Positions 1,967 through 59,886 of a DNA stretch of 64,000 nt are shown one piece after another. Numbering within the stretch: position 1 is the first letter of the stretch; each line of letters starts with the position of its first letter. The position numbers were made by a program, and so were the translations under genes. The notes under the pieces are model-generated. The model was not told the DNA's origin. It ran no database searches and saw only the letters and a program-made list of their open reading frames with translations. The DNA is from Infirmifilum sp. (GTDB taxonomy: Archaea; Thermoproteota; Thermoprotei; Thermofilales; Thermofilaceae). The stretch is from contig JBEULP010000003.1 of the NCBI GenBank assembly GCA_041287245.1, positions 132,530-196,529 of the forward strand, written 5' to 3'.

Positions 1967-2078
<112 letters not shown>

Positions 2079-2085
2079 TTGCATT

Positions 2086-7344: not shown

Positions 7345-9339
7345 ATGTCGAAGGTTAAGCCTAAGAAGTTGAAGAGTAGGGAGAAAAAGAAGGGGAAGGA
7401 AGAGGAAAAGGTTGAGGAGACCGTTGTATATTTTCCTGTTAGAGAGGACTACAAGGTTGTCGAGGAATACTGGGTTGTCGAGCCGTATGCGAAGGTTAAG
7501 ATCGTGGAAATCCCTGAGGCTGGCAACCAGCGGGCGTACTTTGTCGAGGAGGTTCAGCTGACAGAGGAGGAGAGGAAGGCTGCGGAGAAACTCATCGATA
7601 TTCTCAGCGTGGAACTCGAACCCCCCGTATCATTCGATGTGGATTTGAGGCAGCATGTGATAGAGGAGGCTAGGCGCTTAGCCGAGAAATACAAGAGGTC
7701 TCTGCACGGCATAAGTGAGGAAAGCTGGGGGAAGATAATCTACTATATTGAACGGGATCTAGTGGGTTACGGGCCCATTGAAGTGTTGATGAGAGACTTC
7801 AAGCTCGAGGACATCAGCTGTGACGGTGTAGATAGAGCTATTCACGTGTGGCACCGAGAACATGAAAGCATTCCTACAAACATAGTTTTTAGGAGCAGGG
7901 ACTATTTGAGAGAATTTATAGTAAAGCTTGCACACATGTCCGGTAAGCACATCTCCGCTGCTTTCCCGATAGTTGACGCGATGCTCCCGGGTAGGCACAG
8001 GCTTGCTGCAACGTATGGTGAAGAAGTATCGCCTAGAGGAAGCACTTTTACAATTAGGAAGTTCCGTGAGAAACCGCTTTCAATAGTGGAAATGATAGAG
8101 GGAGGAAACCTCGATGATTGGACGGCGGCATACCTCTGGCTATTAATTGAGAACAGAATGACAGCAATGGTCATAGGAGCAACAGCCGCCGGAAAGACTA
8201 CTCTTCTAAACGCAATTGCTAACTTCTTCAAGCCCGGCTTTAAGATAGTAACCATCGAGGAGACACCTGAGTTGAATCTTCCACACGAGAACTGGGTACA
8301 GCTGGTAAGCAGGGAAAGCTATGGTCTTGGCGAGAGTAAAGTAGGAGAGATAACGCTCTACGATCTTGTGAAGGTGTCGCTAAGGTACCGCCCTGACTAT
8401 ATCATTGTCGGAGAGGTTAGAGGCGAAGAAGCATTCGTATTATTCCAGGCTATGAGCACAGGTCACGGAGGGATGTCGACGATGCACGCTGATTCGCTTG
8501 ACCGCGCGGTAAAGAGGCTTACGAGCCCGCCTATGAATGTGTCACCCGCATATATACCCTCGCTGAATATCGCGCTTCTAAGTGAGAGGACAGTGCTTCC
8601 CACAGGCGGCTTCGCCAGACGGGTTAAGCACGTATGGGAGGTTGAGGACTATGAGCGATACAGGGAAATCGTAAGGTGGGATCCTACCAAAGACGTCCAC
8701 AAAGTATTAGCTGAGAGTTACCATATTAGACAGATAGCTGAGCGAACAGGTAAAACCGTTCAAGATTTGTATAAGGAGATCGAGCGGAGAAGAATAATAT
8801 TAAAGTGGATGCAGGCTAAGGGAATCAAGGAGACCAAGGAGGTGTTTACAATTATCAATAAGTATTACATGTATCCTGATGATGTTTACGGAACAGCTTA
8901 CGCGGACTTGAAAGAGATGAATGCGCTTCCACAGCCTGTAAAGATTACGCCGAAGGTTGAGGTTGAAGCAGCACCTACACCACGACCCATTGTGGCTAAG
9001 CCAGCCCTATCTCAGCCTGCCACAGTACCTCCACAGATAGTTTCTACCATAAAACCCCCAGAGGAAAATAATAGTCAAGCCACCGTCGAGCCGGTTCCAG
9101 CGATTTCTCCTGAGGGAATCAACATTCTTAAAGCTCTTTCAGTACTCGGGGGAGAGGGTGATCACACTTCTGTATTTTCGCTGACAGCTCTATCCAGGGA
9201 GCAATTCAGTAAGGCCATTGGCGAGCTTACTGGAAAGCGTCTAGTTATACCAACTCTAATCTATGTGGAGGGCAGACCTGCGGTTGGCTACCGGTTGACT
9301 AGTGAAGGAGAGTCAGTTGCTAAGAAACTAGGGAAATAA
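7345..9339 (+). CDS. Type II/IV secretion ATPase (TadA/FlaI/VirB11 family) with Pro-rich linker and C-terminal wHTH-like domain
   Basis: GATAAGKTT, TIEETPEL, LRYRPDYIIVGEVRG and TGHGGMSTMHA. Confidence 0.92.
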   Translation: MSKVKPKKLKSREKKKGKEEEKVEETVVYFPVREDYKVVEEYWVVEPYAKVKIVEIPEAGNQRAYFVEEVQLTEEERKAAEKLIDILSVELEPPVSFDVDLRQHVIEEARRLAEKYKRSLHGISEESWGKIIYYIERDLVGYGPIEVLMRDFKLEDISCDGVDRAIHVWHREHESIPTNIVFRSRDYLREFIVKLAHMSGKHISAAFPIVDAMLPGRHRLAATYGEEVSPRGSTFTIRKFREKPLSIVEMIEGGNLDDWTAAYLWLLIENRMTAMVIGATAAGKTTLLNAIANFFKPGFKIVTIEETPELNLPHENWVQLVSRESYGLGESKVGEITLYDLVKVSLRYRPDYIIVGEVRGEEAFVLFQAMSTGHGGMSTMHADSLDRAVKRLTSPPMNVSPAYIPSLNIALLSERTVLPTGGFARRVKHVWEVEDYERYREIVRWDPTKDVHKVLAESYHIRQIAERTGKTVQDLYKEIERRRIILKWMQAKGIKETKEVFTIINKYYMYPDDVYGTAYADLKEMNALPQPVKITPKVEVEAAPTPRPIVAKPALSQPATVPPQIVSTIKPPEENNSQATVEPVPAISPEGINILKALSVLGGEGDHTSVFSLTALSREQFSKAIGELTGKRLVIPTLIYVEGRPAVGYRLTSEGESVAKKLGK

Positions 9340-9408
9340 TCACGTATGCTTCTCGCGCGCGATTAGGAAAAATTTTTTATTACGCTGCAATCATAAGTCG
9401 AGTATAAA

Positions 9409-10512
9409 ATGGAAGATATAGTTTCATTTGTAACGGGAATTAGCGGCAGCGGGCGGCTTGTAAAGCTCCAGGAGGTTCAATCCCTAAACTCTTCTTTAGC
9501 TATCATCGACGTCGGATCGAAGATGTACAGGAAATCCGCTGACCTCGGCATTCAAATTCCAGATGGAAAAATCCTCGACATGGATCCATTAGCCCTAGAT
9601 TATCTTAGAGCTGCCACCTTCGAGGATGTTCTGAGGGAGATTGAAGAGATAAGGAGAAGGGGAGGCGTTGCTGCCGTAAGCACTCATGTCTCTTTTCGCT
9701 GGAAAAAACACCTACTCAGCGCATTCAACTTCCACTATGTAAACAGCCTTAACCCCGACGTTTACATTAACATACTGGACAACGCGCACAACATTTATGT
9801 GAATCTCCAACACGAGAGAGCCTGGGCAGGCAGGCTTTCCTTGAAGGAGATTCTAATCTGGAGAGACGAGGAAGCCTTTATCACACGGATGCTTGCGGAG
9901 TACCAGAAGAAGCCTTTTTATCTTTTTCCAAGACGCGAAGATCCCGCCATGCTTGAGAGACTCCTATTTAAAGTTGAGAGAGCAAGAAAACGGGGTGAAA
10001 AACCCCTACCCAAAGCATACCTGAGTTATCCAATAACTCACGTAAAAGGGAACCCAGAGGTCATGAATGCTAAAGACGAGACAAAGCAAAAATTAAAAGA
10101 TGCAGGCATCGTAGTCTTTGACCCCATCTCAATTGAGGACTCTATTCTAATCGACATGGTTCATGAAGCTCGCTCAGCCGGCAAAGATAAGGTAGAAGTA
10201 GACGTCGACGGTAAACACGGTGAAATCCAGGTTAATGAGATAATGGACGCTGTAGGAGACATCAAAGACCAGATTGTTGTCCGTGACTACCAACTGATAA
10301 ACCAGAGTGATATGATCATCGTCTTCTATCCTACGAAAATGTTATCCCCAGGCGTTTTAAGCGAAATAAAGTACGGCTACACACACAACAAGGAAGTGTA
10401 CGCTATATTTCCCTTTGAAGAGTCAAGCCCATTTTTCGAGTACTATACAACTAGACTATTCAAGGATATAGACAGCCTCCTGGAATATCTAAGAGAGGCC
10501 GAGAAAATATGA
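9409..10512 (+). CDS. Fusion protein: archaeal adenylate kinase-like N-domain plus nucleoside 2-deoxyribosyltransferase-like C-domain
   Basis: VTGISGSGR P-loop variant and VSTH; C-terminal AYLSYPI...VFDP...RDYQLINQSD...SPGVLSEIKY. Confidence 0.6.
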   Translation: MEDIVSFVTGISGSGRLVKLQEVQSLNSSLAIIDVGSKMYRKSADLGIQIPDGKILDMDPLALDYLRAATFEDVLREIEEIRRRGGVAAVSTHVSFRWKKHLLSAFNFHYVNSLNPDVYINILDNAHNIYVNLQHERAWAGRLSLKEILIWRDEEAFITRMLAEYQKKPFYLFPRREDPAMLERLLFKVERARKRGEKPLPKAYLSYPITHVKGNPEVMNAKDETKQKLKDAGIVVFDPISIEDSILIDMVHEARSAGKDKVEVDVDGKHGEIQVNEIMDAVGDIKDQIVVRDYQLINQSDMIIVFYPTKMLSPGVLSEIKYGYTHNKEVYAIFPFEESSPFFEYYTTRLFKDIDSLLEYLREAEKI

Positions 10513-11555
10513 ATGTCAGCCTTGATATTCGAGCCGCGGTTCTCCATGTAGAGGAAACGGCGCAGACCCCCGAAACAATAGAGAAGAAAATAGCCTCGTT
10601 CCTCGAGGGACTCGACCGTTTCACCCAGTCCATAGGGCTTAAAGTAATAAGCAAGAGAATAGTGGCTCCGCCTGTATTTCTCCATAAGCTTCCTGATGTG
10701 TTAGATCTTTTGCTTAACATGGCCGAAGCCCATCATATTAATTACCTGGGCATTCCACTACTAAACGTGGAGGCAAAAAGTATAGCTGAGTCCTTGGAAA
10801 CATACCCAAAACTCTACTTATCGGTGGAGTACAACCCAAAGGAAATGCCAGAATACATAAAAACTCTTAGGCTAATTACTGAGAGCTCTCCACTGCAAGC
10901 TACGAAGTTTGCCGTGAGCTTCGGCCCCCAGCCGCAAACTCCATATTTTCCGGTGACACAGTCGGTTAAGGAGGGAGTAACGCTAAGTCTCTTATACACT
11001 CAAATGTTTGAGAACTATACTTCTCAGCAAATTCATAAAACAATAGGAGAAATTCAAGGAGTCGCCAGCCTTAGCTGGAGCAACTTTCTCGGCATTGACT
11101 TCTCGCTCTCCCCCTGGATGGACAATAGCGTCGCGAGGATAATCGAAAAACGATCAGGAGTAATGCTCACTCTACCAGGCACTGTCGCCGCAATCAGAGA
11201 GCTAAACCGTGAGATAGAAGAGCTTGCTAAAGTCTTCAAGAGCACAGGCTTCAACGAGGTTATGCTACCCATAGCAGAGGATAACAGACTGAAGGAGCTT
11301 GTCAAAAACGGGACATTAAAGTTAAGTCATCTCATAAATTACTCAACATATTGTGTAGCCGGGCTCGACATGGCTGTTATTCCCGATACCACAGAAGATA
11401 ATATTTTAGCGGGAATTCTCAACGATCTGTGGCACATCTACCTTTTAAAGAGAAAAACGATAGGCATGCGGCTAATCCTAGCTCCAGAGGAAGAAGGCGG
11501 AGAAATCGACCTCGGAATATTTGGGAAGACGCCGGTTATTTCACCCCTATCATGA
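10509..11555 (+). CDS. DUF711-family protein
   Basis: TPYFP, GIDFSLSP, TGFNEVMLPIAED and YCVAGLDM. Confidence 0.8.
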   Translation: MNVSLDIRAAVLHVEETAQTPETIEKKIASFLEGLDRFTQSIGLKVISKRIVAPPVFLHKLPDVLDLLLNMAEAHHINYLGIPLLNVEAKSIAESLETYPKLYLSVEYNPKEMPEYIKTLRLITESSPLQATKFAVSFGPQPQTPYFPVTQSVKEGVTLSLLYTQMFENYTSQQIHKTIGEIQGVASLSWSNFLGIDFSLSPWMDNSVARIIEKRSGVMLTLPGTVAAIRELNREIEELAKVFKSTGFNEVMLPIAEDNRLKELVKNGTLKLSHLINYSTYCVAGLDMAVIPDTTEDNILAGILNDLWHIYLLKRKTIGMRLILAPEEEGGEIDLGIFGKTPVISPLS

Positions 11556-11765
11556 GCGTACACCTGTACTTGTTAAACACATAATAAGAGTAACCCTTAT
11601 TGGCCTTCTAGTTCTGCTCTCAAGCGCTTTATCTTCTCTATTAGCTCTTAAAACTTTTCTCTGGATACTCCATGCCTGTGGAATGAGCCTTAACCTTAAG
11701 GTAAGCGCATGAAGCCTTTTACATCGAAACTAATTTATCTCCCCTAACAAACACACTATATGCAC

Positions 11766-11852
11766 GCCGGGGTGGCCGAGCGGCCCAAGGCGACGGATTG
11801 CTAATCCGTTACCCGAAAGGGTACCCGGGTTCAAATCCCGGCCCCGGCGCCA
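11766..11852 (+). tRNA. tRNA-Ser(GCT), intronless, CCA encoded
   Basis: GCCGGGG/CCCCGGC acceptor; ACGGA-TTGCTAA-TCCGT anticodon arm; long variable arm TACCC-GAAA-GGGTA. Confidence 0.97.
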
Positions 11853-11947
11853 TTCTATCTTTTTATATCTCCATAAAGCATGGATGTTATGCGAGCGTCT
11901 TTCTCATGAGTTAAGCGAAGAGGTTTAGAAGTACTGCACCCGAGCCT

Positions 11948-12054
11948 TTTGAACCACCGTTGGAGACTGCAGCATATTGCTGCAGTTACCTCCGGGTTAT
12001 GAGCCCGGCGGGATGCCTGGCTTCCCCACCCCGCTCCTGGTAGCGGGGGGTGGA
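11948..12054 (-). tRNA. Circularly permuted initiator tRNA-Met(CAT): 3' part (nt 60-76) at 12054-12038, GG spacer, 5' part (nt 1-59) at 12035-11948 containing a 47/48 intron (11987-11960)
   Basis: A1-U72 pair; CCGGG-CTCATAA-CCCGG arm with three G-C pairs; flanks 12073-12061 and 11946-11934 pair over 13 bp and complete a BHB at 59/60; the intron forms its own BHB. Confidence 0.93.
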
Positions 12055-12095
12055 CTTTCAGGCCCGGGTGCAGCAAGTAGATATATAGCAAGCCT

Positions 12096-12110
12096 GATTT
12101 AAGCGTTACG
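12096..12110 (-). promoter_or_regulatory. Probable BRE/TATA for the permuted tRNA-iMet precursor
   Basis: Minus strand CGTAACG-CTTAAAT about 25 nt upstream of the leader stem. Confidence 0.5.
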
Positions 12111-12286
12111 CATCGGAATGTTGTTTGGTGCCCCCTCCCATCTGCCTCCTTTCGGAGGTGTTCCGGTCATAGAGGGCGCTTTTTAGTTTTGTTTTTCACT
12201 ATTTGAATCTTTTGGAATCATAGATTAATATGGTTTCGTAGGAATGAAAAGTTTTAAACGGGGTAGACCTTTTTGTTCTGACAAGT

Positions 12287-14761
12287 ATGAGTGACAAGAA
12301 GACGAAGTTGATTCTCTGGTTTGAAGAGCTTACTAAAGAGGATGTACCAATCGTCGGTGGTAAGAACGCAAACCTGGGCGAGATGCTTAGGGCTGGTATA
12401 CCAGTTCCGCCTGGCTTTGCTGTCACCGCGTATGCATATAAGCGATTCATAGAGGAAACCGGGATTAGAGATAAAATCTATGAGATTCTCCGCAAGCATG
12501 TTCCTACAGGCGCCGGTAAGCCTGAGGACTACATGGAGGCTTCTCAGGAGATTAGGAAACTCATAGAAAGTGTTTCAATGCCTAGGGATATTGAGGAGGA
12601 GATTAAGAAGGCTTACCGCGAGCTTAGTAGGCGCGTGGGTAAGAATGAGGAATTTGTAGCTGTCCGCAGTAGTGCCACCGCCGAAGATCTTCCTGATGCT
12701 AGCTTTGCGGGGCAGCAGGAAACCTACCTGAACGTGAAAGGTGAGGCTGATGTTATCGAGAAGGTGAGGAAGTGTTGGTCCAGTCTCTTTACTCCGCGTG
12801 CTATCTTCTATAGGGAGAGCAAAGGGTTTGAGCATGAAAAGGTCTTGATTAGCGTAGCCGTCCAGAAAATGGTTAATTCTAGGAGCGCTGGCGTCATGTT
12901 TACTCTTCACCCCGTGACGGGGGATAGGGACAAGATTGTCATAGAGGGGCATTGGGGTCTCGGCGAGGCTGTGGTCAGTGGAAAGGTTACACCCGACGAA
13001 TGGGTTGTGGACAAGAAGACTATGCAAATAATAGAGAGGAATATTGTTGAGAAGACTGTTGAGCTCATAAGAGACCCGAAGACGGGTAGGACAATAGAGC
13101 ATGAGATAGAGCCTGAAAGGCGTACCAAACCCTCGCTTACCGACGAGGAGGTTCTCAGGCTTGCCGAATTAGCCATTAAGATCGAACAGCATTACGGTAG
13201 GCCTATGGATATTGAGTGGGCTGTTGATCGCGACCTCAAGTTCCCTGAAAGTGTTTTTATAGTCCAGGCTAGGCCTGAGACCGTTTGGAGTACTAGGAAA
13301 GAGGGAGGTGGTGAATCTGTGTCTGTAAAAAGCGTATCAGAGGCTAAAGCTGTTGTAAAGGGATTAGCAGCTAGTCCGGGCGTTGCATATGGAAGAGCTA
13401 AGATTTGCCTGTCGCTCGAGGACGCGAAGACCAAAATGCAGCAGGGGGACATTTTAGTGACGAAAATGACCGATCCGGACTGGGTTCCTTACATGAAGAT
13501 GGCAGCAGCCATAGTGACTGACGAGGGTGGCATGACTGCCCATGCCGCCATTGTAAGCCGTGAGCTGGGCATACCGGCAATCGTTGGAACCAGGGAGGCG
13601 ACGAAGGTCATGGTTGATGGCAAGGACTATACTGTAGATGCCAGGACAGGCGTGGTCTACGAGGGCAAGGTTGAGGAATTACTGGGTGGGAAGAAGGAGG
13701 AGAAGGCTGCCGCGGCCGCTCCGATAGAGATAATTTGGAAGCCTATTACCGGCACTAAAATCTATATGAACCTGGGAGTGCCCGAGAAAATAAAGGAGTA
13801 TAAGGATCTTCCATTTGACGGCATCGGGCTTATGCGTGTTGAGTTTATCATGGCCAGCTATGTAGGGGAACACCCGCTTTACCTGCTTGAGAGCGGTAGG
13901 GGAGATGTACTTGTCAACAAGATGGCTGAGGGTATAGCACTCGTTGCGCGTGAAATCTACCCGCGCCCCGTCGTCGTACGTTTTTCTGATTTCAAGACAA
14001 ATGAGTACAGGCAGCTTAAAGGCGGCGAGAAATACGAGCCACAAGAGGACAACCCAATGCTAGGTTGGAGGGGCGTTAGCAGGTACATTAGTCCTCAATA
14101 CGAGAAGGCCTTCAGACTGGAGGTCAAGGCAATAAAGAAGGTAAGAGAGGAGATGGGTCTCGGCAACGTCTGGGTAATGGCGCCGTTTGTTAGGACGCTT
14201 TGGGAAGCTGAAAAGTTTATCAAACTACTGGCTGAAGAGGGGTTAGAGAGTAGCAAGGACTTTAAGATATGGGCAATGGCTGAGGTACCGAGCATTATAT
14301 TTCTCGCTGAAGAGTTTGCACGCTACTTTGACGGGTACTCTATTGGAAGCAACGACCTGACACAGCTAACCCTTGGAACAGACAGGGACTCGGCTATACT
14401 GCCTAAGATTGACCCGAGATATTTCGATGAGAGAGACCCCGCGGTGCGCACCGCAATAGCCATGCTCATTGAAAAAGCCCACAACTCCCCATACGGCTAC
14501 AGAACGGTATCAATCTGCGGACAGGCTCCGAGCGTTTATCCAGAGTTTTCGGAGTTCCTCGTAAGGCAAGGTATAGATAGTATCAGCGTTAACCCCGACG
14601 TAGTTGTTCGAACCAGGGAACTTGTCGCACAGATTGAACACAAAATACTCCTGGAAAAGGCGCTCGGAATCGAGAAGATTGAAGAGGACCTAGGCTGGCC
14701 TATGCGGCGTGAAAGAAGAGGACTCCCGAGAATTGCTAGGCGTGTAGACGAGATAGAATAA
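12287..14761 (+). CDS. ppsA: Phosphoenolpyruvate synthase (pyruvate, water dikinase)
   Basis: VGGKNANLGEM, AVRSSATAEDLPDASFAGQQET, GGMTAHAAIVSRELG and SIGSNDLTQ. Confidence 0.97.
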   Translation: MSDKKTKLILWFEELTKEDVPIVGGKNANLGEMLRAGIPVPPGFAVTAYAYKRFIEETGIRDKIYEILRKHVPTGAGKPEDYMEASQEIRKLIESVSMPRDIEEEIKKAYRELSRRVGKNEEFVAVRSSATAEDLPDASFAGQQETYLNVKGEADVIEKVRKCWSSLFTPRAIFYRESKGFEHEKVLISVAVQKMVNSRSAGVMFTLHPVTGDRDKIVIEGHWGLGEAVVSGKVTPDEWVVDKKTMQIIERNIVEKTVELIRDPKTGRTIEHEIEPERRTKPSLTDEEVLRLAELAIKIEQHYGRPMDIEWAVDRDLKFPESVFIVQARPETVWSTRKEGGGESVSVKSVSEAKAVVKGLAASPGVAYGRAKICLSLEDAKTKMQQGDILVTKMTDPDWVPYMKMAAAIVTDEGGMTAHAAIVSRELGIPAIVGTREATKVMVDGKDYTVDARTGVVYEGKVEELLGGKKEEKAAAAAPIEIIWKPITGTKIYMNLGVPEKIKEYKDLPFDGIGLMRVEFIMASYVGEHPLYLLESGRGDVLVNKMAEGIALVAREIYPRPVVVRFSDFKTNEYRQLKGGEKYEPQEDNPMLGWRGVSRYISPQYEKAFRLEVKAIKKVREEMGLGNVWVMAPFVRTLWEAEKFIKLLAEEGLESSKDFKIWAMAEVPSIIFLAEEFARYFDGYSIGSNDLTQLTLGTDRDSAILPKIDPRYFDERDPAVRTAIAMLIEKAHNSPYGYRTVSICGQAPSVYPEFSEFLVRQGIDSISVNPDVVVRTRELVAQIEHKILLEKALGIEKIEEDLGWPMRRERRGLPRIARRVDEIE

Positions 14762-14793
14762 ATCTAACAGCCAACTTTTTCTATAATACCACT

Positions 14794-15777
14794 CTAAAGG
14801 TAGCGTGGAGTTCCTATTATTTTTCCGTCTACTGTAGCGCATTTTCCTTCTACTAGCTTGAAGAAAGGTTCTCGTCTAGAATTAACTTCTCTGATAGCTT
14901 GCGAAAGCAGCTCGAGTTTCGTCTCTCTACTTGCAGCAGCGTTCCTTAAAATACCCTTTATATCTACTAGATTATCGTTCCTGTTTAAACATGGTTTTAG
15001 CTTCCCGTCGTGTGTCAGGCGGATTCTCGTACACTTGAGGCAGAATGAGGGGTTGCAGTAATTTGCAATAACCTCCACCCTTGTCCCATTGGATAGGAAA
15101 AATACTGGGCGATTGTGCAGGTCTCTATGCTCCACCTTCTCAGCTCTTTCAGCTAATATAGGCAGGACTTTCTCAACCGGGAAATACAGCTTGTCAAAAT
15201 ATTCTCTCCCAAGTCCCATCGGAATAAGTTCTATTAAGTTCAGGTTAAACTCCATTCTTGAAGCATAATCAAGCACCTTCGGTAGTTCGCCATAGTTCAC
15301 TGAAGTCAATACGAAGTTTAGTTTGACGGGAAGACCATAGTCCTTAGCGGCTGCAAGCCCCTTAAGGACCTTTCCAAGTCCTTTCGCCGCAGTAACGGAC
15401 AAGTATTTTTGCTGGTCAATGGCGTGTAAACTAACGTTTATCCTGTCCAGCCCCGCCTCAGTGAGCCTACCAGCATACTCGCTGAGAAAATACCCGTTGC
15501 TAGTCATGGATACTTCAACATCTCTACCGAGGTTTTTAATACGGGACACTATCTCGGCAATGTCTTGTCTGAGAAGGGGTTCTCCTCCTGTGAGTTTAAA
15601 AGAGTTTATACCTTGCGAGTAGGCTGCTTGTGAGACAATCTCTATATCATCAACGCTTAGAAAATCAGGTGTTAAATCTTCTCCTTCTCTATGGCAAAAT
15701 ACACAGTTATAGTTGCATTTCGCCGTTACAGATACTCTAAGGTTAGTCAGGGGACGGCCAAACCTGTCTACAAGCAA
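14794..15777 (-). CDS. moaA: GTP 3',8-cyclase (radical SAM); TTG start at 15777 preferred over track start 15828
   Basis: DRFGRPL, CNYNCVFC, LTGGEP and C-terminal FCLKCTRIRLTHDGKLKPCL. Confidence 0.92.
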   Translation of the reverse strand: MLVDRFGRPLTNLRVSVTAKCNYNCVFCHREGEDLTPDFLSVDDIEIVSQAAYSQGINSFKLTGGEPLLRQDIAEIVSRIKNLGRDVEVSMTSNGYFLSEYAGRLTEAGLDRINVSLHAIDQQKYLSVTAAKGLGKVLKGLAAAKDYGLPVKLNFVLTSVNYGELPKVLDYASRMEFNLNLIELIPMGLGREYFDKLYFPVEKVLPILAERAEKVEHRDLHNRPVFFLSNGTRVEVIANYCNPSFCLKCTRIRLTHDGKLKPCLNRNDNLVDIKGILRNAAASRETKLELLSQAIREVNSRREPFFKLVEGKCATVDGKIIGTPRYL

Positions 15778-15964
15778 GCGAACACCATTTAAGCATGTTC
15801 TAGCAAAGGATATAAGCGTTATCTCCACGTAAAAATATCGCTCGTTGAATCACTTGTTTTAAATTCTACGGAAAAGCATTTTAATTATTGCTTAGGAGAG
15901 AATTTTTCTAATACGACAATTATATCACCATCCTTAAAAATACGGTTCTTCAAAGAACCTCCCG

Positions 15965-16792
15965 ATGTATAATAGCGTTTTAAATGCACAGAATGAACAT
16001 GCGGAAGACAATATCTTTAAGGTACATGTGAAGCCAGAGGCTCTACTTTCCACTATAAATCTTTCGAAAAGGTTCGGGGGAGTAGTGGCTCTAAACAAGG
16101 TAAATATTTACGTTTATCCTGAAACGTTGACTCTCCTTATCGGACCTAACGGCAGCGGAAAAACCACTTTGATTAATGTTATAGACGGCTTGTTACGGGC
16201 AGATGAGGGTCAAATATATTTTGCTGGAAGAGAGATCAGCAAGCTTCCGCCGCACGAAAGATTCCGTTTAGGCCTTGCAAGAACATTCCAGGTTCCGCAG
16301 TTGTTTAGCAGTCTCAGCGTGCTTGAGAACATACTAGTTCCTGAGAGGAGTTTTTATGAGGAGAGGGTATTAGAACTACTGTTAGGTAGCGCTTGGAAGG
16401 TAAAGGAAAAGGAGTACATTGAAAGGGCTTTTAACATTCTTCGTCTTCTAAATCTTGAACACATGTGGGATTCTCCTGCGTCACAGCTGAGCGGAGGGCA
16501 GATGAAACTGTTAGAATTAGCCCGAGTGCTTATGAGTGAACCGAAGCTAGTGATTCTCGACGAGCCCTTGGCCGGCGTGAACCCTACCTTAGCAAATGAA
16601 ATAATGGGGTATTTGACAAGGCTTAGGGCGGAGCTGGGAGTATCGTTTCTTATAATAGAGCACAGACTTGACATTGCTCTCAAATTTGTAGACTATGTCT
16701 TTGCCATGCATCAAGGAGAGGTTATCGCGCAGGGGCTGCCGGACGAGGTTATAAAACACCCTGCTGTCGTGGAAGCCTATCTGGGTGGCTGA
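15965..16792 (+). CDS. livG: Branched-chain amino acid ABC transporter ATPase (LivG-like)
   Basis: KRFGGVVAL, GPNGSGKTT, LSGGQ, LDEPLAGVN and VVEAYLG. Confidence 0.88.
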   Translation: MYNSVLNAQNEHAEDNIFKVHVKPEALLSTINLSKRFGGVVALNKVNIYVYPETLTLLIGPNGSGKTTLINVIDGLLRADEGQIYFAGREISKLPPHERFRLGLARTFQVPQLFSSLSVLENILVPERSFYEERVLELLLGSAWKVKEKEYIERAFNILRLLNLEHMWDSPASQLSGGQMKLLELARVLMSEPKLVILDEPLAGVNPTLANEIMGYLTRLRAELGVSFLIIEHRLDIALKFVDYVFAMHQGEVIAQGLPDEVIKHPAVVEAYLGG

Positions 16793-17504
16793 GTTGGTAG
16801 TGTTGAAGGCTGAGAGTCTCTCCGTTGGTTACGGTAACATGGAGATAGTGTCTAATGTGAGCTTAGATGTTGAAAAGGAGGAGCTTTTCGTCATAGTAGG
16901 TCCTAACGGTAGCGGAAAAAGCACGCTTCTAAAGGGGCTTTTTGGCCTCGCGAGAGTGTTCAGCGGCAGAGTGTTCCTAGGTGACCGGGAGATCACGCGT
17001 TTACCGCCCTATAAGCGTTCACTGCTAGGGTTAAGCTACCTACCACAGCTGGGCAACACATTCGAAAGTTTAACTGTTTTTGAAAACCTTGTTCTCGCGG
17101 GACACGATCTGCCTTCAGATGAGTTTCAGAGAAGACTGGAGAAGGTACTTGACATTTTTCCCGTTGTTAAAGGATTTATGAGTAGAAAGGTTAAAACTCT
17201 CAGCGGCGGTGAGAGACAGGCTCTAGCGTTAGCAATGAGTCTTCTCAGGAGCCCCTCCTTACTCATGATGGACGAGCCTACAGCAGCCTTATCACCTAAG
17301 CTTTCGGCTCAAGTGTTCCAACAGGTTCAAATGCTTCGGGACGAGTACGGTCTTTCAATACTACTAGTAGAGCAGAACGCTATGAAAGCACTGGAAATCG
17401 GGGATAAGGCTCTCCTACTCGTCTCAGGGACCCCCAGATTTTTGGGGTCTCCAGCTGAGCTACTAGGCAATAAGGAGCTTGCCAGGCTTTATCTCGGGGT
17501 GTAG
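16785..17504 (+). CDS. livF: Branched-chain amino acid ABC transporter ATPase (LivF-like)
   Basis: GPNGSGKST, LSGGERQ, MDEPTAALSP and LVEQN. Confidence 0.88.
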   Translation: MAELVVLKAESLSVGYGNMEIVSNVSLDVEKEELFVIVGPNGSGKSTLLKGLFGLARVFSGRVFLGDREITRLPPYKRSLLGLSYLPQLGNTFESLTVFENLVLAGHDLPSDEFQRRLEKVLDIFPVVKGFMSRKVKTLSGGERQALALAMSLLRSPSLLMMDEPTAALSPKLSAQVFQQVQMLRDEYGLSILLVEQNAMKALEIGDKALLLVSGTPRFLGSPAELLGNKELARLYLGV

Positions 17505-26664: not shown

Positions 26665-26768
26665 TGCGGGGGCCGGGATTCGAACCCGGGCAGGCCGACG
26701 CCAGCGGAGCCTGAGTCTGGGCTTCCTCTAAGGAACCGCCCCCTTTGACCTAGCTCGGGCACCCCCGC
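26665..26768 (-). tRNA. tRNA-Leu(CAG) with a 19-nt non-canonical intron at about 30/31 (26735-26717)
   Basis: GCGGGGG/CCCCCGC acceptor; spliced GCGGA-CTCAGGC-TCCGC arm; long variable arm; mature length 85 nt. Confidence 0.9.
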
Positions 26769-38086: not shown

Positions 38087-38138
38087 AATTAGTTTTTATT
38101 AGCATGCGCGATAAAAATTCTTTGTGTCTAGTGGAATT

Positions 38139-38702
38139 ATGGAAGCAGGGGGCAATAAGGTAAAGGCAGTCTTACTAGGTAAAAACATAGTTGTGCTCGA
38201 CCGTGAAAAAGCCAATTCCCTCTATTTTCGAAGCGGTTTTTACGGACGTTTCTTCACAGTACCTAAGCCGAAGACCCCTGATGTTAGGAAAGAGCTAGAG
38301 CTCTCCTTTTTTGACGCCCTTTACCTACTGGAGAAGGGGTATCTTGAGTTATACGATGAAAACCTTGAAACCGTAACTCCCCAGGAGTTCAGGGAGGTCG
38401 CCAGGAGATTTTATGAGAATTTTGATGATGCCTATGCGGTTTACAAGGATCTGCGCGATAGAGGCTACATTGTTAAATCAGGGATGAAGTTTGGCTCCAC
38501 ATTCGCCGTCTACAAGGTGGGGCCCGGCTTCGACCACGCACCGTTCCTTGTCCACGTCTTAAACTATGACAGCAAACTAGACCCTCTTGAAATAATCAGG
38601 GCTGGGAGGCTGTCGCACTCGGTTAGGAAGAAGTTCCTCCTAGCCTACAGAGACCCCGTCGACGGAAGAATACGATACTTCGTCTTCAGATGGCTTATGT
38701 GA
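38139..38702 (+). CDS. endA: tRNA-intron endonuclease, catalytic subunit
   Basis: VYKDLRDRGY, SGMKFG, catalytic Y/H/K in FAVY..GPG..HAP and HSVRKK. Confidence 0.93.
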   Translation: MEAGGNKVKAVLLGKNIVVLDREKANSLYFRSGFYGRFFTVPKPKTPDVRKELELSFFDALYLLEKGYLELYDENLETVTPQEFREVARRFYENFDDAYAVYKDLRDRGYIVKSGMKFGSTFAVYKVGPGFDHAPFLVHVLNYDSKLDPLEIIRAGRLSHSVRKKFLLAYRDPVDGRIRYFVFRWLM

Positions 38703-59704: not shown

Positions 59705-59789
59705 TCTACCAGTGAAAAAGCAAGTTGTGAATATATATTCTTCTCAAAAACCATGGCTCGTTTAAGAAATTCAAAAGGGCGTATACGAG

Positions 59790-59886
59790 TGGACCGGCCG
59801 GGATTCGAACCCGGGACCACCGCCGCTCTCGAGACCCCTAACCGAGCCTTTGCAAGGGCGACATCCTCCCACTAGACGACCGGCCC
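59790..59886 (-). tRNA. tRNA-Ala(TGC) with canonical 37/38 intron (59850-59826, 25 nt)
   Basis: GGGCCGG/CCGGTCC acceptor with G3:U70; BHB helix CTTG/CGAG; mature length 72 nt. Confidence 0.93.

Follow-up and report, generated by a model that had tools for sequence, protein, structure and literature searches.

A permuted initiator tRNA gene with a variable-loop intron in an Infirmifilum genome and its counterparts among the Thermofilales

The window, a 64,000-nt stretch of an Infirmifilum genome, contains a locus in which the 3' part of a tRNA is encoded ahead of its 5' part and the variable loop is interrupted. How can a working initiator tRNA be obtained from such a gene? We hold with considerable confidence that this is the single initiator tRNA-Met (iMet) gene of the genome, with its 3' end encoded first and its variable loop interrupted by a 28-nt insert, and that one transcript is cut and rejoined twice, through a circle, before the tRNA ends are freed. 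The processing route is the part that we infer. Genomes, contigs and loci are designated below by G, C and L numbers where needed, with G000 for the genome of the window.

Gene layout, initiator identity and splice motifs

The gene occupies positions 12074–11933 of the minus strand. Its elements follow in the order leader, nt 60–76 with CCA, 2-nt spacer, nt 1–47, 28-nt intron, nt 48–59 and trailer, all where a sequence-only reading of the window had placed them. The features are as follows.

12097..12103, minus: TATA-like box CTTAAAT, putative single promoter, read by eye; it predicts a start near G12074
12055..12074, minus: leader, with a 13–14-nt arm (12073–12061), the central-helix strand 12060–12057 that pairs with nt 54–57, and two bulge nucleotides (12056–12055) before the cut at nt 60
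12038..12054, minus: 3' exon, nt 60–76, CCA encoded; read from the sequence and confirmed by ARAGORN on the joined exons
12036..12037, minus: intervening spacer GG, 2 nt, between CCA and nt 1; read from the sequence
11988..12035, minus: 5' exon, nt 1–47, 48 bases with one extra D-loop base
12001–11999, minus: anticodon CAT, in the 5' exon
11960..11987, minus: BHB-type intron at 47/48, 28 nt, with a 9-bp hairpin and a 4-nt strand that pairs with exon nt 42–45
11948..11959, minus: middle exon, nt 48–59, 12 nt, flanked by two predicted EndA cuts
11933..11947, minus: trailer, with the third bulge base and the arm that pairs with the leader
38124..38702, plus: tRNA splicing endonuclease subunit, not part of the iMet gene (ORF; PF01974, E 3e-31)

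The three rejoined exons fold into a 77-nt tRNA-Met(CAT) cloverleaf according to ARAGORN. Archaeal initiator tRNAs are recognized by a CAU anticodon, an A1-U72 pair, a purine11-pyrimidine24 pair and three G-C pairs at 29–31/39–41. The rejoined tRNA has the CAU anticodon, A1-U72 and G11-C24, and G29–G31 are paired with C39–C41. By these features it is an archaeal initiator tRNA-Met, and its role in initiation is predicted. On one strand, an intervening sequence links the upstream 3' part to the downstream 5' part, the arrangement that defines a type IV (59/60) permuted gene. A split (trans-spliced) tRNA was considered and rejected, since the pieces are 2 nt apart on one strand and do not form separate loci with their own promoters. 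Because the spacer is only 2 nt, it cannot hold a promoter. G002, G003, G006 and G007 also have, by eye, a TATA-like box at a distance of 22–23 nt ahead of the leader helix. A sigma-70 promoter scanner, which covers sigma-70 promoters and is not applicable to archaea, gives no match at the locus. A search of sequencing runs with window positions 7400–16800 lists no RNA run that contains the region. The locus folds with z = -8.4, and none of 200 shuffles is as stable. A generic scan for 59/60-permuted tRNAs returns one match in the 1.81-Mb genome, the iMet gene itself, and none in each of four Markov-generated genomes of equal size; no other 59/60-permuted tRNA is found in the same genome with or without CCA in the pattern. 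Judged from its sequence, the gene is real and very likely functional. Neither ARAGORN nor Rfam reports it, in the window or in the whole genome, as had been anticipated for standard annotation.

Several neighboring features were recorded as well. The PEP synthase gene (12287–14761, plus) is the divergent neighbor upstream, while a convergent tRNA-Ser (11766–11852) and a DUF711 gene (10509–11555, plus) lie downstream; the arrangement is partly kept in G005, G006, G007 and G010. A 78-aa ORF (12091–11855) overlaps the iMet gene and is treated as chance. Run on the window without intron search, ARAGORN reports only the tRNA-Ser. Three further intron-bearing tRNA genes are present in the window, at 1967–2080 (plus), 26665–26768 (minus) and 59789–59886 (minus), which by eye are Arg (with two introns), Leu and Ala.

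The census of the genome gives 46 tRNA genes, the same number as reported for Thermofilum pendens in the accessible part of PMC3218864. They comprise 44 distinct linear genes from the motif census (45 rows, one of them a sub-hit), a separately found Asn gene and the permuted iMet gene. Isotypes in the census were read by eye, and one more Ala-like gene, truncated where contig C74 ends, was not counted because it is probably a contaminant. The tRNA-Asn gene (G000 C61:51777, plus) is linear with two introns, one of them at 59/60, and is missed by ARAGORN. Two other genes with a CAU anticodon have G1 and, again by eye, resemble elongator Met and Ile2. A linear iMet gene elsewhere in the genome, for which the sequence-only reading had suggested a search, is not found among the 46, and no second copy of the iMet 5' end, anticodon arm or T-arm strand occurs in the genome; the permuted gene is the sole iMet gene recovered. 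The assembly is a bin of 1.81 Mb in 119 contigs, 99.99% complete with 5% contamination, so a second iMet gene could be unassembled.

At the 59/60 junction all four pairs of the central helix are Watson-Crick, each bulge has 3 nt and the other side is closed by the T-stem. Leader and trailer make an outer helix of 13–15 pairs, with a run of 15 when G-U is counted. The 13-bp helix described earlier is present in its pairing, but it includes one G-U pair and extends by 1–2 pairs. The register is well defined: at the window gene, 58/59 scores 1 for the central helix and 0 for the outer helix, versus 4/4 and 15 for 59/60. Covariation of the outer helix is seen across 14 genomes. Pairing holds in 113 of 126 cells in register and in 44–67 of 126 when the strands are slid; most positions show 2–4 pair types, and the leader of one genome pairs fully with the trailer of another in only 4 of 182 crosses. 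These pairing counts are descriptive, as kin genomes are not independent. The BHB proposed for 59/60 is thus borne out by its central helix, its bulges and this covariation.

At 47/48 the central helix (nt 42–45) pairs perfectly over 4 bp, the two bulges are 3 nt each and the intron helix is 9 bp long; among registers 44/45 to 47/48 only 47/48 gives both the 4/4 central helix and the 9-bp helix. The exon-side helix is limited to two possible pairs (40-50 and 41-49), which compete with the T-stem and have a probability of 0.02–0.12. The motif is better described as relaxed (HBh') than as strict hBHBh'. Of the "perfect BHB" claimed at this position, the central 4 bp, the bulges and the 9-bp hairpin hold, but with an exon-side helix of 2 bp the word "perfect" was an overstatement. 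Removal of the intron restores exactly the 5-nt variable loop of relatives, as for a BHB-type intron. In nearest-neighbour models at 37–85 °C, the central helix is formed with a probability of 0.31–0.58 at 47/48, costing two anticodon-stem pairs, and of only 0.03–0.27 at 59/60. Because these values are low, the two motifs are probably completed on the enzyme and need protein binding. Rejoined cloverleaf, census and register test together support what the sequence-only reading had proposed here, a permuted initiator tRNA with a 59/60 junction, a 47/48 intron and no linear copy.

The intron has one close counterpart. G022, a member of another genus in the same family, has a permuted iMet gene whose 31-nt intron lies precisely at 47/48; relative to the window intron, this intron shows a compensatory change in the central helix, similar ends and a different hairpin. 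The strict 47/48 pattern has 7 matches in 5 of the 120 genomes of the class, and the tRNAs among them are only the two permuted iMet genes of the window's genome and G022. None of 29 readable metagenome loci has a 47/48 intron, while five have a variable-loop intron at 45/46, one of these with four introns in all. An exact search and blastn-short found no intron donor elsewhere in the genome. Many other tRNAs of the genome carry variable-region inserts with BHB-type motifs, as seen by eye.

Two other explanations of the locus bear on these data. The 28-nt insert might be kept as a long variable arm, or be cut at another register, and not be spliced at 47/48. It is indeed a stable hairpin in the variable region, in the minimum-energy fold at 37 °C the anticodon stem is retained while the central helix does not form, and the exon-side helix is weak. 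However, only register 47/48 yields a 4/4 central helix with 3-nt bulges and, on removal, the variable loop of the relatives; G022 preserves the motif through a compensatory change despite its different hairpin; and inserts with such motifs recur in many other tRNAs of the genome. We regard retention or another register as very improbable. Still less probable is that the locus is a pseudogene or an artefact of assembly and that the bin lacks the working initiator gene. In favour of this are the draft state of the bin, its contamination and at least one surplus tRNA lying at the end of a contig, but the iMet gene lies well inside a 196-kb contig, its exons retain every hallmark and its flanks covary. 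The same layout is found beside the same PEP-synthase gene in the single-contig genomes G005, G006 and G007, and these complete relatives largely refute the artefact.

A predicted route from transcript to tRNA

Splicing at both sites through a circle would proceed as follows. The promoter about 22 nt upstream would give a transcript of about 142 nt. EndA would cut and RtcB would join at 47/48 and 59/60, one after the other, because two open cuts would leave the 12-nt exon held by only five T-stem pairs; the intron would likely be removed first. Joining of nt 59 to nt 60 would close a 79-nt circle and rebuild the T-loop elbow needed by the end-processing enzymes. RNase P would then cut in front of A1, within the 6-nt acceptor loop, and leave two G's for tRNase Z or an exonuclease to remove; the CCA end would be repaired where necessary. 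Genes for two PF01974 EndA subunits, RtcB, archaeal RNase P RNA and a CCA-adding enzyme are present in the genome. The product of 38124–38702 in the window is likely the catalytic alpha subunit and a processing enzyme, on the basis of residues that we take, by eye, to be catalytic. An RNase Z-like protein scores below the family cut-off (221 vs 293 bits). Two homologues of the CCA-adding enzyme, L154 (C61) and L155 (C31), share 42% identity; L155 is truncated where its 2.6-kb contig ends and could be a contaminant. Since the linear tRNA-Asn gene has an intron at 59/60, a BHB at this position is in routine use in the genome.

The gene could also be functional without a circle, if RNase P and tRNase Z excised the spacer first and EndA and RtcB then joined the two paired pieces as in a split tRNA. 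In the folding models the acceptor stem and 6-nt loop already form in the linear precursor, and the available part of the PMC3978253 review calls the circle unclear for archaea, where circular intermediates are unproven, and the removal of a 1-nt spacer an open question. The same models place precursor nt 54–57 either in a helix with the leader or in an open loop, so the T-loop elbow cannot form, whereas RNase P and tRNase Z recognise the acceptor/T-arm half (PMC3978253). For the permuted tRNAs of Cyanidioschyzon merolae, the same source describes a demonstrated circle, removal of the intron first and repair of the T-loop before removal of the spacer. Excision of the spacer first is therefore considered unlikely, and splicing through a circle is the preferred route; the two EndA/ligase events and the circle proposed in the sequence-only reading are reasonable predictions.

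Permuted and linear genes among the Thermofilales

Permuted iMet genes are found in 14 of the 41 genomes of the order Thermofilales, 13 by an exact pattern and G001 by eye. Another 14 have a linear iMet gene (one cut by a contig end), and none was recovered in the remaining 13. A short-pattern search of these 13 and five genomes of the class gave 60 matches, of which 30 were examined and none is an iMet gene of the 13. With encoded CCA required, the exact pattern occurs in 13 of 120 genomes of the class, all inside the order. The permuted layout is also present at 30 metagenome loci. Spacers are 2–23 nt in the genomes and reach 28 nt in the metagenome loci, so the comparison of iMet loci suggested by the sequence-only reading gives a spacer range of 2–28 nt and the 47/48 intron in one further genome, G022. 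Of the 14 genomes, 13 fit a junction at 59/60 and one fits 58/59; of the 29 readable metagenome loci, 17 fit 59/60 and 12 fit 58/59. The 58/59 cases are G018 (L016) and 12 loci among L189–L218, and this register is not in the permuted-tRNA table of PMC3978253.

The scan of the genome collection gave 27 matches: 6 true permuted iMet genes, 2 tandem linear genes or repeats and 19 chance matches. The 6 true matches sit in records titled Thermofilum, Thermofilaceae, Thermofilales or "archaeon" and were left out of the genome count, as they may repeat counted genomes. The two tandem cases mimic the permuted pattern and were rejected; L049 (a Methanotrichaceae bin) is a tandem pair of linear iMet genes and L069 (a Zixiibacteriota bin) consists of decayed tandem iMet-like repeats. 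Viral contigs gave no match to the permuted pattern.

Individual genes vary further. The permuted iMet gene of G001 (L031, minus, a single-contig genome) has C1-G72 in a remodelled acceptor stem instead of A1-U72 and an intron near 32/33; that genome gave no further iMet match. The gene at L218 apparently has four introns, in the D-loop and at 32/33, 37/38 and 45/46, by eye. In G004, of the same genus as the window's genome, the 7-nt spacer and 15-nt intron have exactly the lengths published for T. pendens.

The history of the gene was followed on an RpoB tree of 28 taxa that excludes G010 and G016, for which no complete gene was available. In this tree the window's genome forms a group with G005, G006 and G007 (100/100). 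All four are permuted with a 2-nt spacer, and the three relatives have no intron; G022 is far away on the tree. At least three changes between linear and permuted iMet are required, and none of 200 bootstrap trees allows a single change, although with this single marker gain, loss and transfer are not separable. The linear iMet gene of G010 adjoins the same PEP-synthase gene as the permuted iMet genes of G000 and G006, which indicates that a switch occurred in place. Permutation would predate the split of this lineage from its genus relatives, and the intron would have entered later, into a gene already permuted. The simplest reading of the sequences is that such a gain happened twice or that the intron was transferred. 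The promoter and leader of the window gene are nearer to those of G003 than to those of its RpoB sisters (score 62 vs 22–36), a hint that the history may include gene transfer.

The tRNA-Tyr gene behaves similarly in being permuted in 9 of the 25 genomes where it was found, with spacers of 1 nt in five and 2 nt in two. It is linear in the window's genome (L156, G000 C105:12325-12457, minus) and in G005, G006 and G007. In G001 and G004 the body of the permuted Tyr gene is more like that of distant genera than that of the intervening linear relatives, a pattern that suggests transfer or reversion. Linear genes with a 59/60 intron also exist in the order, namely iMet in G035, Tyr in G014 and Asn in the window's genome. 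In the iMet gene of G035 (L157, about 60–235) the 59/60 intron uses the central helix found in the permuted genes, and a long inverted repeat on either side of this gene lengthens the acceptor stem. The duplication model of permutation, as given in the available text of PMC3978253, starts from a linear gene with such an intron, and these linear genes are the starting state that it requires.

Relation to described systems and meaning

The statement in the sequence-only reading that T. pendens has permuted tRNA-iMet and tRNA-Tyr genes with T-loop breaks agrees with Chan, Cozen and Lowe 2011 (PMC3218864). In the part of that paper available, both are permuted at 59/60, with spacers of 7 nt for iMet and 1 nt for Tyr, and both carry a canonical intron; the iMet gene is classified as type IV in Soma 2014 (PMC3978253, likewise in part). 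The window gene is the counterpart of T. pendens iMet(CAU). It shares the isotype, the 59/60 junction with a leader-trailer BHB, the encoded CCA, the single copy, the presence of an additional intron and, putatively, the single upstream promoter. It differs in its spacer (2 nt versus 7), in the 28-nt intron at 47/48 in place of one at 37/38, with a 12-nt exon between the splice sites, and in the 4/4 Watson-Crick central helix of its junction; tRNA-Tyr, moreover, is linear in the window's genome. The permuted Tyr(GUA) gene of T. pendens resembles it in the 59/60 junction, the encoded CCA, the very short spacer and an intron, but is of another isotype with the canonical 37/38 intron. The combination of permutation with an intron and the tiny spacer, whose novelty had been implied, are therefore mostly not new.

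C. merolae also combines permutation with non-canonical introns: Arg(CCT) has its junction at 59/60 and an intron at 14/15, and Gly(CCC) has its junction at 37/38 and an intron at 55/56 (PMC3978253, in its accessible part). As in the window gene there are two independent BHB motifs, which in C. merolae are processed in order. However, those genes are eukaryotic, lack an encoded CCA and have spacers of 7–74 nt, and no variable-loop intron is listed for them. Non-canonical BHB introns of Thermoproteales and Thermofilum are located at positions such as 45/46, 53/54, 56/57 and 59/60 in the portion of PMC4090602 consulted. They too are short hairpins, removed there by (alpha-beta)2 EndA, which acts on a BHB or on a relaxed motif, and variable-loop introns are known among them; 47/48 is absent from the listed positions, in a list that ends in "etc." A 47/48 intron was not found in the available parts of PMC3218864, PMC3978253, PMC4033280, PMC8450103, PMC4090602, PMC12397907 and bioRxiv 10.64898/2026.10.13.758758, an absence weakly tested in that position notation is hard to search. 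The 47/48 position, with the resulting 12-nt exon, appears to be an unreported feature of the window gene. On its own it is a modest addition.

The larger difference is in distribution. The reviews, in the sections available, list T. pendens as the only archaeon with permuted tRNAs, and no archaeal survey of them later than Chan 2011 was found in the literature searched, nor any paper that links permuted tRNAs with Thermofilum uzonense, Thermofilales or Thermofilaceae. With the counts given above for iMet and Tyr, at least three changes, the 58/59 register and linear 59/60-intron genes, permutation is much wider and more changeable than the literature examined describes. A more general proposal is tentative, and we lean slightly against it as a whole. 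It holds that permutation may be a labile, widespread state of Thermofilales iMet and Tyr, gained, reverted or transferred repeatedly in place from linear T-loop-intron genes such as those of G035, G014 and the Asn gene of G000, with 58/59 as a second register. Permuted genes would keep acquiring introns, and the 47/48 intron would be initiator-specific and have moved between genera. In the window gene this intron would impose two splices in a set order on either side of a 12-nt exon, as well as the opening of a circle with a 6-nt acceptor loop, which may need an undescribed end-processing route.

For the organism, the analysis recovers an essential gene overlooked by ARAGORN and Rfam, and many Thermofilales genomes are likely to be affected in the same way. 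The window gene and its intron-less relatives with 2-nt spacers form a natural series, with spacers of 1–28 nt and 0–4 introns, for testing the archaeal circle and the removal of short spacers. For the family and its relatives, one order shows both the linear 59/60-intron state and at least three switches, so the origin of permuted tRNAs becomes testable by phylogeny.
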